DNA from: Promethearchaeota archaeon
Lineage (GTDB): Archaea; Asgardarchaeota; Lokiarchaeia; Sigyniarchaeales; SOKP01
Length of the DNA stretch: 22,189 bases
Reading direction: 5' to 3'
Assembly (NCBI GenBank): GCA_048938445.1
Contig: JBHLME010000073.1
Span: 1-22,189 of the forward strand
How positions within the stretch are numbered: the first letter of the stretch is position 1; every line of letters begins with the position of its first letter. Positions 1,340 through 11,407 of the stretch are shown in pieces. A program made the position numbers and the translations under genes. A model generated the notes under the pieces. That model was not told the origin of the DNA and did not search any database. It saw nothing but the letters and a program-made list of their open reading frames with translations.

Positions 1340-2134
1340 CTATTTTTTATTGATATAATTTAAAAAGGCTTTCACAATAATATGAAATCTTTCGTCTCTT
1401 ACAGCAGATAAATGGTCACATCCTTGAATTTGGAAATGGCATGCCCCTGGCATTGTTTCTGCAAAAATTGTTTTATTTTGAAGCAATATATCATCAGTAC
1501 CGGCTACAGATAATACGGGGATTTTAACTTTTTTAAATACTGATTTTACACTCTTAAGTGAGTCAAACAAAATATTTTCGTCCTTATTTACAAAATTTCC
1601 TTTCATGACTGTAGCTAACACTTTTGGATCTTCTCCAGTAGAATCAGCAAATTTTCGGAAATTTAGAGCAATGGGATTTTTTATATCATTAATGTTATCT
1701 ATTTTAAGTGCTTCGACGATAGGTCCGTAAAGTTGGTTTATAGACTCTGGTTTTAAAGCTATTGGCGTATATCCTCCTATAATTGCACTATTAACACGTT
1801 CTGGTTCTGATAACAAAATACTTAAGGCAATACTTCCTCCCATCGAGTACCCGAAGAAATTTGCCTTGGAAATTGATAGATGGTCCATTAATTTAATAAT
1901 ATCTTCTCTCATGTATGCTCCATATTGTTTAGGATCATCTGGCTTGTCGCTTTTACCGTGGCCACGACAATCTACCAAAATTAATCTATTGTCATCCTTT
2001 AGAGTGGATATCCAATTTGTTTCGCGCCAATTTATATCGATATTTGCAGCAAAACCATGAATCATTATTAAATCCGGTCCTTTGCCTTCAATTTCGTAAT
2101 GAATTTTAACTTGATTATTATTAAAATCCGGCAT
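1340..2134 (-). CDS. Alpha/beta-fold hydrolase
   Basis: HGF oxyanion motif, DCRGHGKS, GYSMG nucleophile elbow, GTDD acid residue and CDH catalytic His. Confidence 0.9.
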   Translation of the reverse strand: MPDFNNNQVKIHYEIEGKGPDLIMIHGFAANIDINWRETNWISTLKDDNRLILVDCRGHGKSDKPDDPKQYGAYMREDIIKLMDHLSISKANFFGYSMGGSIALSILLSEPERVNSAIIGGYTPIALKPESINQLYGPIVEALKIDNINDIKNPIALNFRKFADSTGEDPKVLATVMKGNFVNKDENILFDSLKSVKSVFKKVKIPVLSVAGTDDILLQNKTIFAETMPGACHFQIQGCDHLSAVRDERFHIIVKAFLNYINKK

Positions 2135-2271
2135 TTTAATTACCCAAAATAGGTATGATTAAAACAATATAATCGAATTAAATTAATAAACTTTATCCAA
2201 GATTAAAGTTGGTTTTAAGAAAATTATATTATAATTTTAGCAGATTTCATTAATATATTTTACCTATTACT

Positions 2272-2454
2272 CTAATCATGGTGTATTCGCTCATTTATTG
2301 TTGAGCGTAAAAGGGATATTTTTATTTTTTTCTTATTAAAACCTACCGTTTCAATAATTTTGATGATTTTTAGTCGTTTGGCTTTCCCTTTTAAGCCTTC
2401 TTCTTGCATAAATTCATTTGCGTAATTTTCAATATCTGATTTATCAACCATCAA
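2272..2454 (-). CDS. Small hypothetical protein (basic, helical)
   Basis: 60-aa ORF with a protein-like K/E-rich composition in an otherwise empty intergenic space; no recognised motif. Confidence 0.55.
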   Translation of the reverse strand: MMVDKSDIENYANEFMQEEGLKGKAKRLKIIKIIETVGFNKKKIKISLLRSTINERIHHD

Positions 2455-2660
2455 TAGACAAAATGAATCAATTAAAATAAAGTTGTATGAAATGGATCAC
2501 ATGAGTGTAAAATTTCAAAAAATAAATTATTAAAATTAAACAGAAAAAATAAATTAATTTGAATATTTCCTAATTCAAGGATTTTAGAATCATTTTAAAC
2601 ATATTTAAAAAAATTATTAATAAGAATAATGGTGAATCTATAAAAAAAGGTATTAGAATT

Positions 2661-4670
2661 ATGTCTGATAATAAACAGACCATTAGTGATATAAGAATCG
2701 GAGTTTATGTCTGTAGATGAGGGGTAAATATCGGAGCACACGTAGATTGCGATGCTGTCAGAGATTTTGTTGAACCATTGCCTAATGTTGTAATTGCTCG
2801 AACTAATGATTTTACTTGTAGCGATCCTGGTCAACAAACAATAAAAAATGATATTCTAGAATTAGATTTAAACAGAATCGTGGTTGCCGCTTGCACACCT
2901 AAAATTCATGAACCTACATATAGAGCAGTCTTAATGGAAGCAGGTTTGAGCCCTTATTATTTTGAAATGGTTAACATGCGGGAACATTGTTCCTTCGTGC
3001 ATCAAGATGATAAAGAAAAAGCGACTCAAAAAGCTATGAGACTCATATTAGCAGGGATAAATCGAGCTCGAGAACTTGAATCAATACCTAGAAAAGAAAT
3101 TTCTATTAAAAAAGCGGCTTTAGTTATTGGAGCAGGCATTGCAGGTATGAATGCTGCATTAGATTTAGCAAGCCAAGGAATACAGGTATACCTTGTGGAA
3201 AAGGAAGCTACAATAGGAGGCAAAATGGCACAATTAGACCGTATCTTTCCTACGGATGATTGTGGTATATGAGTTCTTGCTCCTATTATGGTTAATGCTT
3301 CAAAACATCCTAATATTGAATTATTAACATATAGCGACATAATTGAATTTAGAGGTATTACTGGAGATTATAAAGTGAAGATTCGAAAGAATCCAAGATT
3401 TGTTGATGAGTCAAAATGCACGGGTTGCGGATTATGCACGACTAAATGCCCAGTTAAGGTCCCTAATGAATTTGATAGGGGAATTGGAGAACGAAGAGCT
3501 GTATATATCCCTTTCCCACAAGCAGTACCGAAATATGCCATTATTGACAAATCGGCTTGCATAGATTGCAAAAATTGTGAGCGAATATGTCCTGCTGAAG
3601 CAATTCTTTTTGATCAAGAGCCAGAATTTTTAGATATTAATGTAGGTGCTGTAATTGTCGCAACAGGATGGGATGAATATCCAATAATCGAAAGTGGAGA
3701 ATATAAGTATGGTTTATATCCTGATGTAATTACTCAAATCGAACTTGAACGAATGTTAAGTCCAATTGGACCAACTGGAGGCCATGTATATAGAATTTCA
3801 GATGGTAAGACACCTCAAAAAGTTGCTATGATCCAGTGTGTTGGTTCAAGGACTTTACGAGGAAATCAATATTGTTCTGGAGTTTGCTGTAATGTTGCTT
3901 TAAAAAATGCTCAATTGCTCAAGCAAGAGTATCCCAACATAGAAATTATTCTCTTTTACATTGATATCAGAACGACAGATAAGAATAATGAAGAATATTA
4001 TCGTTCAATTAGAGCTCAAAAGATAACTTTCATCAAGGGAAAACCAGGAGATATCAAATTAAATGAAAACGGGACGATGAAATTATTTTATGATAATTCT
4101 TTATCGGGTGATGTATCATCATTGGATTTTGATCTTGTCGTCCTATCGACTGGAATTGTTCCTTCGAAAGGAACAAATGAAATGATTGAAACTATGGGTC
4201 TTGGAAAAGGACCTAATGGGTTTTTGACTGAAATTCATGGGTGTTTAAAGCCACAAGAAACTAAAACAATGGGAATTTATATATGTGGATGCGCTGCGGG
4301 TCCAAAGAACATTCCTTATTCCGTTTCAACAGCGCTTGCTGCTGCGAGTAAAGCTGCAACTTTACTCTCCAACGATACGATTAGACAAGAACTAATCATA
4401 GCTGAAATTAATGAAGATCTCTGTATGGGATGTCATAGATGTGAAAAGCTTTGTGAATATGAGGCAATTAAGGTAAATGCGGAGGGAATAGCGGAAGTTG
4501 ATGATCTTAAATGTAAGGGATGTGGAGTTTGTGTTACATCTTGTCCAGCTAAAGCAATAGATCTCAAATATTATCGTGAGAAACAATTTAAAGAAATAAT
4601 CAAGGGAATTGGCGCTGTTGGTATTGATTTGACTATTAAGAAAGAAGTACAAAAAGTAGGAGAGGAATAA
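2661..4670 (+). CDS. hdrA: Heterodisulfide reductase subunit A-like flavoprotein, selenoprotein (669 aa; Sec20 at TGA 2718-2720, Sec204 at TGA 3270-3272)
   Basis: One frame from ATG 2661 reads MSDNKQTISDIRIGVYVCR*GVNIG (HdrA RIGVYVCHCG motif), then VVAACTP, VIGAGIAG (FAD binding), FPTDDCGI*VLAPIM, ferredoxin motifs, QCVGSR, CSGVCC and C-terminal 2x[4Fe-4S]. ORFs 2778-3272 and 3288-4670 are in this same frame. Confidence 0.95.
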
Positions 4671-4691
4671 ACAAATTAGAAGTGATAAATT

Positions 4692-5123
4692 TTGAAACAA
4701 ATTGAAAAAGAAATACCAAGAAGAATAATTGGATTTGGTTGTGAGAAATGAGGATATTCAGCTGCCGATCTGACTGGTACGACCAGAAAATCATATTCAA
4801 CATCATTTCATCTCATTCGAGTTAGATGTACTGGAAGAATAGGAATTGATTTAATTATGGAAAGTTTTCTAAATGGCGCTGATGGTGTAGCAATAATCTC
4901 TTGAAAAAAAGGAGAATGTGAATTTGGAAGGGGAAATATGAATACTTATGACCACGTGCTCTTTTTAAAGAGACTTTTCAATCATTTAGGAATCTCAGGA
5001 GAAAGAATACAACAATATTTTTGTAGTGCTGCAGAAGTAGAAAACTTTGTATCATCAGTCAACGATATCACAAAAAAAATTGAAAGCTTACCCCCTTTAC
5101 CGAAAAATTTTAATCCGAAATGA
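4692..5123 (+). CDS. mvhD: MvhD/VhuD [2Fe-2S] hydrogenase delta subunit, selenoprotein (143 aa; Sec20 at TGA 4749-4751, Sec71 at TGA 4902-4904)
   Basis: From TTG 4692: MKQIEKEIPRRIIGFGCEK*GYSAADLTGTTRKSY...IRVRCTGRI...NGADGVAIIS*KKGECEFGRGN...LGISGERI...CSAAE. This matches the MvhD motifs CNWCSYxxAD, RVxCSGR and GADGVxxxGCxxGDC, with both TGAs at Cys positions. The start codon is inferred. Confidence 0.93.
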
Positions 5124-5183
5124 ATGATTCTTAAGAAAAAATTATAGTCTTGAGAAGACACGCCACTGCGAGGTTATTCGGAT
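5113..5183 (+). promoter_or_regulatory. SECIS element of eukaryote-like type (selenocysteine insertion RNA structure)
   Basis: ATGA at 5124-5127. Stem TTCTTAAGA (5128-5136) pairs with TCTTGAGAA (5148-5156). Apical loop starts AAAAA (5137-5141) and GA is at 5157-5158. Lower helix ATCCGAA (5113-5119) pairs with TTCGGAT (5177-5183). It lies directly 3' of two TGA-containing genes. Confidence 0.85.
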
Positions 5184-5223
5184 AATTTAAACAAATAAAT
5201 AAAAAAAGAATTTTAAACTGATA

Positions 5224-6720
5224 ATGAGTTCTGAGAGTAAAATTTCATGGAATTTTTTAAAAAATGTAAGTGATGTATTAAACTCATATAGGATTAGAGC
5301 GTTATTAGACGCAAAAAAGGACGTATTAGAATCGGGGATTTATAATGAATCTGAGTTCTATGATATCCTATTTAAAATGTTTGATGAGGAGCGATTGAAA
5401 TATGCATTTTTTGACTTTTTAAAATCAAAAAAAAGCCATGGTTTTGACTCCTTAGAACAATTTGCAAATGATAATTCTATTGAAATAACTAAAGCTTATT
5501 CTTTATTAGAATTACTAAGAAATGAAAACCTCGTTCACATTCAAGAATTAATTGATGTTATAGAAGATGGTGATGATAAGCCTCCTAAAAGAAACTTTAA
5601 AGGATTATCATTTTATATATCTAATAGTGATTTGTCCAAAATTAGATCTGTTTATGAACCTGTTAAGGTCATATTTGACTCGAAAATATGCTCTGGATGT
5701 GGTTTGTGTGCAGGAATATGTCCTGTAAATTGTATTGAAATTAATAATGGATTTGGAAAAATTGATGATGACAAATGTATAAGATGTGGTTTATGTTATT
5801 TCATTTGTCCTAGATCATTTTTACCCACTCGAGTCTTGAGAATGACTCAAGATAGTATCTCAGAAATTAAAGATTATGGGAATTTTGGACCATTTATTAA
5901 AGCATTTTGTGCTAGGACTAAGGTTAAAGAAATTGCAGAAGAATGTCAAGATGGTGGAATCTCAAGTACTTGCTTATATCATTTATTAGATTCAAAAAGA
6001 ATCGATTTTGCATTAGGTGCAACAATGAGTAAAGATCCTTGGAGACCTGAACCCATTTTAATAGAGGGAAAAGAGGATATTATTAAATCAGCAGGAACAA
6101 AGTATGTGAATAATCCAAATTTAATGTTATTAAATGATGAACGCGTTCATGGAAAAAATTTGGCTGTAGTGGGAGTTCCATGTCAAATGCAAGCATTATT
6201 AAAATCTCAAATTTATAACATTGGTTTCCCTTCATTGAATAAAATAAAATATCGAATAGGAATATTTTGTATGGAATCTTTTCCATATGCGGAGGGTTTC
6301 TTGAAAATATGTGAAAAACTTAATGTTAATGTAATTGATGTCAAAAAAACGGATATCAACAAAGGAAAATTCTTTATTTACACGAAGTCCGGTGAAGAAT
6401 TAAATATTCCCATAAAAGAAATAAGTGATTTAGCCAGAATTGACTGTGAATTTTGTCATGATTTAACCTCTGAATCTGCAGACATTTCTGTTGGTTCTAT
6501 TGGTGCTCCGGTAGGATGGAACACAGTTATTATCCGGACTGAAAAAGGCAAAGAACTATATGATGAGTTAATAGAACATGATCTGATTGAGTCAAAAGAT
6601 ATCAATGATGTTAAACCGGGATTGCCATTACTCTCTAAAATTGCTGGTAATAAACGAAAGAAATGTGAAAATCACGTTAATTCTAAAATAAATTCAAATC
6701 AAAGGTTTCCAAGATATTAA
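5224..6720 (+). CDS. FrhB/FdhB-family (F420-reactive beta subunit-like) protein with 2x[4Fe-4S] domain and ~140-aa N-terminal extension
   Basis: CSGCGLCAGICP and CIRCGLCYFICP, QDGG, SAGTKY, VGVPCQ, IGIFCMESF, CEFCHD and ADISVGSIG are FrhB hallmark motifs. Confidence 0.9.
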   Translation: MSSESKISWNFLKNVSDVLNSYRIRALLDAKKDVLESGIYNESEFYDILFKMFDEERLKYAFFDFLKSKKSHGFDSLEQFANDNSIEITKAYSLLELLRNENLVHIQELIDVIEDGDDKPPKRNFKGLSFYISNSDLSKIRSVYEPVKVIFDSKICSGCGLCAGICPVNCIEINNGFGKIDDDKCIRCGLCYFICPRSFLPTRVLRMTQDSISEIKDYGNFGPFIKAFCARTKVKEIAEECQDGGISSTCLYHLLDSKRIDFALGATMSKDPWRPEPILIEGKEDIIKSAGTKYVNNPNLMLLNDERVHGKNLAVVGVPCQMQALLKSQIYNIGFPSLNKIKYRIGIFCMESFPYAEGFLKICEKLNVNVIDVKKTDINKGKFFIYTKSGEELNIPIKEISDLARIDCEFCHDLTSESADISVGSIGAPVGWNTVIIRTEKGKELYDELIEHDLIESKDINDVKPGLPLLSKIAGNKRKKCENHVNSKINSNQRFPRY

Positions 6721-8949: not shown

Positions 8950-9858
8950 CTAATCAGAATGAGCTGAGATTATTAAATCAGCAAATAATTTCATATCTTT
9001 TAAAAGAATGTTTATTTTATCTTGTGATTCCATCTCAATTTCTCCAGATTTCATGATGATAACAGAAATGATATATTTGAAGATATGTAGTTCTACTTCT
9101 TTACCATCATCATTTTGCCCTTTAAAAACCGCAGAATCCGACATGAATATATTTTCTCTTATGGTATTGCACGCATTAATATAATCTCTTAAATCGCCTC
9201 TTAGAGTCAAACCTGAACTTACACCTTGAACATTATGACTAATTACGTTTCCCGAGATATCAGTAATGATAATTTTTGCTTTGATCTCTTGAAGTTGTTT
9301 CTCAGCTTTTTCTACATGTGTTTTTAGTTCTTTGTAAGAAGAAATTAATATATCTCTAAATACCTTTGAGAGTTTATCTTGTTCATAAATACTAGTTAGC
9401 ATGTATGAAAAAGTATATTCTTTAAACATGTCTAAAAAGATTTCTTTTGCCCTTTTAACATTAGTATCTAATAACTCTTTTTGATAATTTTGGGTATCAT
9501 ATTTATGTAAAAATAATGTCACTCTAGGTTTTTCGTTATTTTGACGGTAAATTTCCAATAAATCCTTGAAATAATCTTTTGCTTCTTCAAATCTATCAGG
9601 ATCATGTAAATCTACGATAGGTATGAGTATGTCTGTACCTTTGAAAATTTCAGGTTTTTCTTTGTATTCCTTTCTATACTGTTCTTGACCTCCAAAATCA
9701 AATATACCTACTTGTAATCCCAAAAAAGGATGTCTTCTCGTTTCATAGAGTATCGTCGGGGATAATTTCTTCGTATCTTCTGGAGATTTTTCAGCAAATG
9801 CTACAGAATACAAGCTTGTCTTTCCACATCCTCCTAATCCTACTAAACTAATTTTCAT
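8950..9858 (-). CDS. Rag/Gtr1-like small GTPase with C-terminal roadblock/longin-like domain
   Basis: GLGGCGKTS (G1), LSPT (G2), FDFGGQ (G3), LHKYD (Rag-type His-containing G4), TSIY (G5). About 120 aa of C-terminal alpha/beta domain (KIIITDISGNVISH). Confidence 0.8.
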   Translation of the reverse strand: MKISLVGLGGCGKTSLYSVAFAEKSPEDTKKLSPTILYETRRHPFLGLQVGIFDFGGQEQYRKEYKEKPEIFKGTDILIPIVDLHDPDRFEEAKDYFKDLLEIYRQNNEKPRVTLFLHKYDTQNYQKELLDTNVKRAKEIFLDMFKEYTFSYMLTSIYEQDKLSKVFRDILISSYKELKTHVEKAEKQLQEIKAKIIITDISGNVISHNVQGVSSGLTLRGDLRDYINACNTIRENIFMSDSAVFKGQNDDGKEVELHIFKYIISVIIMKSGEIEMESQDKINILLKDMKLFADLIISAHSD

Positions 9859-9940: not shown

Positions 9941-11407
9941 TCATTTCTTTTCTGATGGCGCATATTTTACTGATCGGGAAAAAATTTTTCCATATTCTTC
10001 TGTTGATGCCTCAATTAAGACTGTTCCTTCCATACTTTCCACGGGATAATCTATTTCAACGCTTTCATAAGGAAATAATTCTTTTATTGAAGTAATCCAG
10101 GGATTCCTTTCAAAAACATCTTCGACTAATGTGGCTCTTGCTGTCAAGTTTTCCAACACGAAACCAACTGTGTTTGTAAGTGTTAAGTTTAAGATTTTCT
10201 TTTCCTCATCCAAATCTTTAGTTAAACTCAATGCTTTACGCGTTCCCATGAGTTCTTTAGCTTTTTCTGATATTGGACCAGATTCGATAGCTCGTTTTAC
10301 TTCGTCTGCTCCATTCTTTACTATGAATACTTTTCTTTTTTGAATATTATACTGCGCAACTTTCTTGAGTTTGGCCAAAAATAATACAGCGTTCAAATTT
10401 ATAGCATTGAAAGGTTCAATTTTTAAATAACCTTTTTTGGCAGCATCTTCAATGATTTCTGCTCCTAAACCTGATCTCGCAAAAACAGTATTCTTATTTG
10501 GGCCGCTTCCTACAGAACCAACTGATATATCTGCATTTTCTGCAGTCAAATCAACACAAAAATTACAGCTTGAGGATTTATATTTATGTAGTGAGGCAAT
10601 TGTATAAGATTTGACTGGTTCTCCGTTCAATTCTTCATACAAATGGAATTTTCCTTTATTTATATCCATCTTGATGATTTTATTCAAATCTAATCCATCC
10701 TTTCGAAATTTCGCATATAAAGTTTCAGGAGAAAAGCTATCCATGCAGAACAATCCAATTTTTAAAATATGAGCTCTCATGAAATATTTAAGCATTCCAT
10801 GAGGGCTGTTCATCATCTTGTCAACAGCATCGATATTACATGGCGTGCCTACAAAAGCTATTGATCTATAATCTGCGCGTATGGCGTCCATTAAAGCCTC
10901 AACTGTTTGACTATGAGTATAAATAGAACCAGCACTTTTTATCGCATCTTCTTTTGATGTTACTATCTGTGCTATTGGATACCATGGCTTATCAGGGTTT
11001 TTCATGGTTACTATCGCAGCATCAATCAGATGCTCATCAAATAAATAACATAAAAGACTTACTACTGTCCCTCCATCCTGACCTCCAATTACTTCAGGAA
11101 TTTGAGTATTTGCTACATATCCAGTTTTAAACTCTCCCATCAGTTCAATTGGGTCTGTGATAGTTCTAGGGCACTGATTATAGCAGATTCCGCATCCGGT
11201 GCACTTTCCAATCAATTTGGGTTGAGAAGTTAAATAATCCCATTCTAAGACCGGGCAAACAGCCGCACACGTCCCACACTCAGTGCAAATTCCTGTTCGA
11301 ATGATCTCTTTCATGAGCATTCCATAGGAGTCCTTCTTACCTTCGAGCTTTCTGGAAATATAATCGAAACTATAGTCATACTCAGCTTTAGATTCTTCTT
11401 CTGTCAT
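9941..11407 (-). CDS. Second FrhB-family protein with N-terminal 2x[4Fe-4S] and C-terminal Ig-like domain
   Basis: CTECGTCAAVCP and CTGCGICYNQCP, QDGG, SAGSIY, VGTPC, IGLFCMDSF, CNFCVD and ADISVGSVG. Residues ~391-488 form a beta-rich extension. Confidence 0.9.
   Translation of the reverse strand: MTEEESKAEYDYSFDYISRKLEGKKDSYGMLMKEIIRTGICTECGTCAAVCPVLEWDYLTSQPKLIGKCTGCGICYNQCPRTITDPIELMGEFKTGYVANTQIPEVIGGQDGGTVVSLLCYLFDEHLIDAAIVTMKNPDKPWYPIAQIVTSKEDAIKSAGSIYTHSQTVEALMDAIRADYRSIAFVGTPCNIDAVDKMMNSPHGMLKYFMRAHILKIGLFCMDSFSPETLYAKFRKDGLDLNKIIKMDINKGKFHLYEELNGEPVKSYTIASLHKYKSSSCNFCVDLTAENADISVGSVGSGPNKNTVFARSGLGAEIIEDAAKKGYLKIEPFNAINLNAVLFLAKLKKVAQYNIQKRKVFIVKNGADEVKRAIESGPISEKAKELMGTRKALSLTKDLDEEKKILNLTLTNTVGFVLENLTARATLVEDVFERNPWITSIKELFPYESVEIDYPVESMEGTVLIEASTEEYGKIFSRSVKYAPSEKK

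Follow-up and report, generated by a model that had tools for sequence, protein, structure and literature searches.

An hdrA-vhuD gene pair with four in-frame UGA codons and a single downstream SECIS element in a Promethearchaeota archaeon

Can a single RNA element direct the reading of four UGA codons as selenocysteine (Sec) when these codons are spread over two genes? The question is raised by positions 2,661 to 5,183 of a stretch of 22,189 nucleotides from a Promethearchaeota archaeon (GTDB lineage Archaea; Asgardarchaeota; Lokiarchaeia; Sigyniarchaeales; SOKP01; assembly GCA_048938445.1, contig JBHLME010000073.1, positions 1 to 22,189, forward strand), hereafter called the window. Here hdrA, which encodes a homologue of heterodisulfide-reductase subunit A, is followed on the same strand by vhuD (or mvhD, FlpD family), and one selenocysteine insertion sequence (SECIS) element stands behind the second gene. 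A first-pass annotation, made from the letters alone, had proposed that this element recodes all four UGAs across the cistron boundary. We consider it probable that the genes form an Asgard selenoprotein pair of the Lokiarchaeia type, a kind already published, in which the downstream SECIS serves the four UGAs of both cistrons.

The recoded frames and the element behind vhuD

Read with TGA as Sec, hdrA (2661..4670, plus strand) encodes 669 aa and ends in TAA (4668-4670). Its product contains Fer4 and FAD/NAD-binding families of Pfam and matched two solved structures over nearly its full length (E 2.3e-217 to 9sfi_A and 2.9e-210 to 5odc_A). The vhuD gene (4692..5123, plus strand) begins with TTG at 4692, encodes 143 aa and stops at a TGA; its product was assigned by PF02662 (E 7e-37) and by matches to 9sfi_K and 5odc_D. 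The translation with TGA as U bore out the four codons that the first-pass annotation had located, namely codons 20 and 204 of hdrA and codons 20 and 71 of vhuD. It had also placed them at the cysteine (Cys) positions of the families, and all four, two in each gene, indeed pair with Cys or Sec in the 9sfi and 5odc chains. Codon 20 of hdrA (2718..2720, YVCR-U-GVNI) faces Cys in both 9sfi_A and 5odc_A. Codon 204 (3270..3272, DDC-GI-U) closes the motif C-G-I-U and faces X (Sec) in 9sfi_A and Cys in 5odc_A; the protein thus combines the full-length HdrA architecture with the canonical Sec, that of the CxxU motif near residue 200. In the HdrA of M. maripaludis, Sec197 makes a Cys-Sec bridge near the FAD, according to the part of PMC13518236 available to us; from the agreement of number and motif, the X of 9sfi_A is presumably this Sec197. 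In vhuD, codon 20 (4749..4751, CEK-U) and codon 71 (4902..4904, IIS-U-KKGEC) coincide with both X of 9sfi_K and with Cys in 5odc_D, and thus the FlpD domain carries the two Sec positions of methanococcal VhuD.

The same codons were followed through an orthologous set, for which the 30 top-ranking vhuD loci were taken out of 151 genomes belonging to this class. Both hdrA codons were TGA in 30 of 30 loci (29 other genomes), as was codon 20 of vhuD; codon 71 of vhuD was TGA in 27 and Cys in the other three. Beyond the UGAs the frame of hdrA stayed open and conserved in the orthologues (75-93% identity), and its stop codon was TAA in 25 loci, TAG in five and TGA in none. TGA does act as an ordinary stop in the window, where it terminates 3 of the 16 other open reading frames (ORFs). 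As judged from the sequences, a chance occurrence of the in-frame TGAs is excluded. Under table 11 the two genes fall into five segments, of which three are ORFs of at least 50 aa (2778-3272, 3288-4670 and 4938-5123); the three fragments that had been announced for standard gene calling are therefore correct for ORFs of this size, and not for the segments in total. Standard annotation will miscall hdrA and vhuD as fragments, and read-through is advisable.

The SECIS, an extended element of the lokiSECIS type, occupies 5113..5183 on the plus strand (fold -17.7 kcal/mol, z -2.45). Its lower helix AUCCGAA/UUCGGAU (5113-5119 with 5177-5183) lies partly inside the coding end of vhuD and encloses a kink-turn hairpin. 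The AUGA core of this hairpin (5124-5127) starts 1 nt after the vhuD stop, and is followed by helix II of 9 bp (5128-5136 with 5148-5156, UUCUUAAGA/UCUUGAGAA, 9/9 pairs), by an AAAAA-bearing apical loop of 11 nt (5137-5147, AAAAAUUAUAG) and, directly 3' of the stem, by the GA (5157-5158). A weak 3' hairpin of about 3 bp lies within 5159-5176. These are the features of lokiSECIS, or Asgard eSECIS-like, type I: AUGA 5' and GA 3' (in this type also AA) flank a main stem of 9 bp; the 11-nt loop opens with five bases rich in A and closes with a G preceded by A; a coding sequence with UGA ends close by; and conservation of the element is accompanied by covariation, in an alignment fitted to the model. 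Moreover, a SECIS of this type was found behind vhuD in 30 of 30 orthologous loci, in 26 by the strict pattern and in four as variants recognized by eye. An Rfam scan of 2000-6000 with E up to 10 gave no SECIS family, the chance-level matches being SmY, CRISPR repeats, miRNA and snoRNA, and by covariance model the element is not a member of the eukaryotic family SECIS_1. No methanogen-type GAA_A element, which is a GC-rich hairpin of two stems with GAA opposite A, was seen by eye in 5100-5225.

The core lies 2406 nt downstream of the first UGA, codon 20 of hdrA, and 222 nt downstream of the last recoded one, codon 71 of vhuD. A fifth in-frame UGA, the terminal codon of vhuD (5121..5123, plus strand), adjoins the core and is read as a stop; the next in-frame stop beyond it is TAG at 5145-5147. 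Among the 30 orthologues vhuD ended with TAA in 13, TAG in nine and TGA in eight, and the stop was at most 22 nt from the core in the 29 loci with the core correctly placed. Where orthologous vhuD ended in TGA, this stop stood beside the AUGA core or was part of it. Stops of VhuD near the SECIS core are likewise reported for Loki in the available part of Mariotti et al. (2016, PMC4989117).

The two genes are separated by a spacer of 21 nt (4671..4691, plus strand), the gap that had been noted at first. It holds a Shine-Dalgarno-like AAGUGAU (4680-4686), 5 nt ahead of the TTG start, whose fit to the 3' end of 16S rRNA is assumed by us. The spacer measured 21 nt in 20 of the 30 orthologous loci and 5-20 nt in the others, with two cases not resolved, and most of these spacers contained an AGGUGA/GAGGU-like motif ahead of the vhuD start. 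In the window the spacer 4671-4691 showed no structure (fold z +0.82) and is too short for a SECIS.

A second element and the other hdrA loci

Sharing of the SECIS would be in doubt if hdrA had an element of its own, and a second SECIS within or upstream of this gene was searched for; none was found. A covariance model, R1, was built from the SECIS elements of the 30 vhuD loci and run with filters off over both strands of the whole window. It gave one match (5107-5201, 70.9 bits, E 6.5e-15), and the next-best score in the window, 15.0 bits (E 0.51), belonged to a place without the core. The first-pass annotation had seen a single SECIS-like hairpin after mvhD, about 2.4 kb from the first UGA, and this was the sole match of the covariance model. 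Across the 30 orthologous loci (1.5 kb upstream, hdrA and the vhuD start; 110,474 bases; default filters), R1 had 0 matches with E up to 10. A relaxed pattern of the core occurred at one site on both strands of 2300-5300, compared with a mean of 0.22 in 200 mononucleotide shuffles. One SECIS is thus present, downstream of vhuD, and no other was detected nearby.

Folding and codon usage were examined over the same genes. The 70 nt after UGA20 and UGA204 of hdrA folded no better than shuffles (z +1.55 and -1.60), and the corresponding values were z +0.93 after codon 20 of vhuD and z +0.64 for the 5' leader of hdrA; the 70 nt after codon 71 of vhuD folded mildly better than shuffles (z -2.08). 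In the 30 hdrA orthologues, synonymous-site identity was flat after both UGAs, within about 1 standard deviation of the gene mean, and its peak was restricted to codons 1-6, where coverage was low. In vhuD the highest windows included the last codons, which overlap the lower helix of the SECIS and serve as a positive control.

The rest of the genome (assembly of 4.63 Mb in 256 contigs, 29.6% G+C) has 16 hdrA-like places, five of them with in-frame TGA at Cys columns. Four are hdrA-vhuD pairs with 2+2, 2+2, 2+2 and 4+2 TGAs, each with one SECIS, behind vhuD. The fifth is a solo hdrA (C214:60733-62793, L058) that has five TGAs, at positions 20, 78, 204, 306 and 393 of the window HdrA, and no vhuD behind; its SECIS follows directly and has the core AGGA instead of AUGA. 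The hdrA copy on C4 has Sec at positions 20, 53, 78 and 204, so that, with the C214 copy, six different HdrA positions are used for Sec in this genome. The genome-wide R1 search scored 150 of 9771 first-look candidates and missed the SECIS of the pair on C117; the hdrA loci were then searched directly (filters off, E up to 1). A SECIS was found at 5/5 UGA-containing hdrA loci versus 0/11 other hdrA-like loci, and the positive control in the search of these 11 reached 33.3 bits. Ten of the 11 had no in-frame TGA, and in the remaining one, on C37, a TGA and another stop were present only at the far end of the alignment and were taken as the gene end. The solo hdrA with a SECIS directly downstream argues that hdrA needs a 3' SECIS in cis. 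Furthermore, three tandem selenoprotein genes on C53 have one SECIS each, while the pairs have one for two genes; therefore the arrangement of one SECIS for two genes is specific to hdrA-vhuD.

Mechanism, Sec machinery and rival explanations

The proposed mechanism is as follows. The genes hdrA and vhuD would most likely be transcribed as one mRNA, on which vhuD would initiate at its own TTG, led by the Shine-Dalgarno-like motif and 21 nt past the hdrA stop. The kink-turn SECIS 3' of vhuD would recruit EFSec with Sec-tRNA(UCA), directly or through an adaptor, and would loop back along the same mRNA, so that four UGAs lying 222 to 2406 nt upstream, in both cistrons, would be read as Sec. The supply would reach a ribosome that pauses at an upstream UGA in either cistron of this RNA, provided that the UGA is far enough from the element. 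The fifth UGA, adjoining the core, would terminate vhuD because, by the time this codon entered the A site, the ribosome would have opened both the lower helix and the core. In this mechanism co-transcription, action across the cistron boundary and the distance rule that spares the last UGA are reasoned from the arrangement of genes, codons and element.

The genome contains the machinery for Sec decoding, two parts of it below the family cut-offs. SepSecS (C157:291-1448, 378.7 bits), SelD (C226, 181.3 bits, with one TGA and its own SECIS) and EFSec (C108, 243.3 bits, just over 242.25) scored above theirs; a PSTK-like gene and a probable tRNA-Sec (UCA) did not. The latter, at the end of C108 and the start of C157 (L001, L002), adjoins SepSecS and lies about 4.6 kb from EFSec, on the opposite strand. 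Its anticodon loop is CUUCAAA, and, by eye, a stretch lying about 45 nt ahead of the Rfam match can pair to complete a 9-bp acceptor stem. On these three features, the UCA anticodon loop, the 9-bp acceptor stem and the place beside SepSecS, its identity as tRNA-Sec is probable. The surroundings of Loki tRNA-Sec are described much alike in the available text of PMC4989117. By eye, two parts of the probable tRNA-Sec, its 5' acceptor strand and half of its D stem (the 5' one), lie about 35-45 nt upstream of the rest, a layout suggestive of an insert in the region of the D arm; in the tRNA-Sec published for Loki, a 31-nt intron interrupts the T loop (same source). ARAGORN found no tRNA in the window. 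Two L7Ae-family genes were found, in agreement with the reported absence of SBP2.

Several points nevertheless weigh against the sharing of one SECIS by both cistrons. The case for one mRNA is made from the 21-nt gap and the Shine-Dalgarno-like motif, not from transcripts. A 2025 study (PMC11881835, available in part) reports that a SECIS from Lokiarchaeota did not function in M. maripaludis, and the parts of the literature searched contained no experimental test of SECIS sharing by hdrA-vhuD. R1 was made from vhuD-type elements, and therefore an element of a different kind in hdrA would escape it; the folding and synonymous-site scans are weak detectors of a second element. As to the machinery, the PSTK-like gene (C208, 159 bits, E 2.5e-46) is under the curated 290.5, and the probable tRNA-Sec (39.5 bits) is under the Rfam gathering score of 47; the same search also gave matches in 14 of 14 control genomes, and ARAGORN, which called 38 tRNAs in the genome, called none as SeC and did not report this one. 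The L7Ae-family genes are only the two mentioned. Finally, a pair with UGA in hdrA only, whose SECIS could be assigned to hdrA beyond doubt, was not present among the 16 hdrA-like places of this genome, relatives not being screened.

The explanation that competes most directly is that the hdrA UGAs are recoded otherwise: by an element in hdrA or ahead of it that escaped recognition, by a SECIS acting in trans, or by insertion that needs no SECIS. In archaea a SECIS can be located in the 5' untranslated region, as in Methanocaldococcus fdhA, and this counts for it, as do the restriction of R1 to vhuD-type elements and the somewhat better fold after UGA71 of vhuD. However, neither the window nor the 30 orthologous loci had an R1 match in hdrA or in the 1.5 kb upstream of it, no core pattern occurred there, the folds after both hdrA UGAs and in the leader were unremarkable by the z values given above, and synonymous identity after these UGAs did not depart from the mean. 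In addition, the only hdrA without vhuD behind it has its own SECIS directly downstream. We regard recoding of hdrA by such other means as improbable. It is still less probable, indeed very unlikely, that the hdrA UGAs are real stops, with hdrA a pseudogene or a source of short products and vhuD the sole selenoprotein served. That the frame is broken under table 11 would agree with this, but both TGAs stand on Cys/Sec positions and are kept in all 30 loci, the frame downstream of them is open and conserved, and the hdrA stop is never TGA.

Open frames would be obtained just as well if TGA were reassigned genome-wide to an ordinary amino acid or if the TGAs were assembly errors, and they are all that speaks for either. 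Reassignment is contradicted by the other ORFs of the window that TGA terminates and by the confinement of in-frame TGAs to Cys/Sec columns. Against assembly errors, a contig from a second study was identical over 4548-5032 (0 differences), and contigs of runs that likely belong to the source study were identical over 2600-3171 and 3142-4837 (0 differences); this comparison spanned four DNA runs containing many related organisms, with 312 further differences not viewed and variants at the TGA sites not excluded. The orthologues in 29 other genomes also bear the same TGAs. Taken together, reassignment and assembly error are the least credible of the explanations, at a probability close to nil. 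The sharing of one SECIS by hdrA and vhuD is supported: no computationally testable observation that had been named beforehand as speaking against it, whether missing Sec machinery, TGAs off the conserved Cys columns or a second SECIS, was made.

Known systems, extra helices and the wider setting

The hdrA-vhuD arrangement with a shared SECIS is already known and has been in print since 2016. The novelty suggested for sharing one SECIS across cistrons is thus not upheld: it is contained in Mariotti et al. (2016, PMC4989117) and in Huang et al. (2024, PMC11227280), both of which we cite from part of their text. According to Mariotti et al., all Loki HdrA-VhuD tandems have a single lokiSECIS, downstream of VhuD; one element may serve up to six UGAs over about 2 kb, a polycistronic mRNA is implied, and HdrA always ends with UAA or UAG. 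Such regularities of stop codons and spacing are the basis there of the case for a shared element and for a rule of minimal distance. Huang et al. describe Asgard hdrA and frhD as always neighbours, almost all of them sharing one eSECIS-like structure. The window pair resembles the Loki tandem (PMC4989117) in having hdrA upstream of vhuD on the same strand, a very short spacer, an hdrA stop other than UGA, several Sec in HdrA, among them the canonical one near residue 200, and two in VhuD, an element of AUGA, 9-bp stem, 11-nt A-rich loop and GA after vhuD only, and a vhuD stop that may be UGA next to the core. Nothing essential differs, and the window holds another genome's copy. What this genome adds to the texts of PMC4989117 and PMC11227280, as far as these were available, is the lower helix with the extra 3' hairpin and the frhB-like gene about 40 nt downstream. 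Its SelD SECIS (C226) is of the 9-bp/11-nt type, in contrast to the distinct SPS type described for Loki in the accessible text.

With eukaryotic SECIS elements the present one shares the AUGA...GA core, the A-rich apical loop, the place 3' of the coding sequence and the presumed long-range effect on more than one UGA, which is also seen in SelP, where a eukaryotic SECIS serves several UGAs (PMC4989117, in part). It differs in its shorter stem, in the lack of an Rfam match and of an SBP2 homologue in the genome (two L7Ae-family genes only), in the probably polycistronic mRNA and in its partial overlap with the coding end. The VhuD SECIS of Methanococcales and Methanopyrus (GAA_A type, AUGA motif) is similar in standing 3' of vhuD, with two UGAs about 50 codons apart and hdrA-vhuD synteny. 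There, however, hdrA has its own SECIS and a single Sec (PMC4989117, in part), whereas here one element is present for both genes.

The lower helix and the extra hairpin were examined in an alignment of 40 distinct SECIS sequences, namely those of the 30 vhuD orthologues and the elements that the genome-wide R1 search had located behind other selenoprotein genes of this genome; the SECIS of the C117 pair is therefore not in the set. On the raw MAFFT alignment, RNAalifold recovered just six pairs of helix II and the gaps were misplaced, so a model-guided alignment was used instead, that is, one fitted to the structure being assessed. With this proviso it contained three helices: the lower helix, helix II and an extra 5-bp 3' hairpin with a GC-containing loop. 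Pairing was found in 89.1% of the cells, versus 29-56% with the partners slid, and at least one compensatory change was seen in 21 of 21 pairs, including all nine of helix II; none of 500 shuffles matched the observed covariation values, in the same model-fitted alignment. The extra 3' hairpin does not appear in the text descriptions of PMC4989117 and PMC11227280 that we had, supplements not covered; both describe the 9-bp hairpin, and Huang et al. (PMC11227280, in part) a lower stem as well.

The frhB/fdhB-like gene for an iron-sulfur flavoprotein (5224..6720, plus strand; PF04432 2.6e-40, PF04422 1.1e-18, Fer4) starts 41 nt past the lower helix of the SECIS. Since 29 of the 30 orthologous loci have a gene of this kind behind the SECIS, the element may be intercistronic, and hdrA, vhuD and the frhB-like gene may form one unit with the SECIS between cistrons. 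It is conceivable, though we hold it rather doubtful, that the SECIS serving both cistrons is a larger unit than the published hairpin, consisting of three helices and lying between the cistrons of a conserved hdrA-vhuD-frhB-like cluster instead of in a terminal 3' untranslated region. Such a unit would comprise the lower helix CCGAA/UUCGG, the kink-turn hairpin and another hairpin, of 5 bp, which has a conserved loop containing GC and belongs to the 3' side of the internal loop; the SECIS elements matched by the model in this genome would all have it. An archaeal SECIS-binding factor that permits long-range recoding across cistrons could dock at the extra hairpin.

Elsewhere in the window there is a second frhB-like gene (9941-11407, minus strand), and small GTPase genes of the Arf/Ras family and the Gtr1/RagA family lie at 606-1217 and 8950-9858. 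Small GTPases of these types are typical eukaryote-like signature genes of Asgard archaea and agree with the lineage to which the SECIS type points.

Other selenoprotein candidates were noticed in the genome. The three tandem genes on C53 (C53:11336-12858; L061, L063, L094) have in-frame TGAs and a lokiSECIS after each. Two of them encode paralogues, about 156-173 aa long, in which Sec residues stand side by side (GC-U-U and U-G-U-U), and the third encodes 74 aa with CxxC pairs and has four TGAs; none of the three proteins had a Pfam match above cut-off. Of 101 genomes of the class, 85 have the GCUU family, whose genes nearly always contain two TGAs, and its motif was kept in 12 of 12 loci checked. 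The published Prx-like family is defined by a CxxC-type redox box, which the GCUU family lacks, and the Asgard selenoprotein families listed in those parts of the published accounts that were searched do not include it; as a selenoprotein family it may be undescribed. Another candidate, for a small selenoprotein, is a predicted membrane protein of 48 aa (C24:4199-4463, L056) that ends in CP-U-S, is followed by a lokiSECIS (54.2 bits) and has no Pfam match.

The locus is thus another, very clean instance of a published arrangement, and together with its 30 orthologues it makes a good comparative set. In it one RNA signal, eukaryote-like in an archaeon, would reprogram stop codons up to 2.4 kb away in two reading frames.

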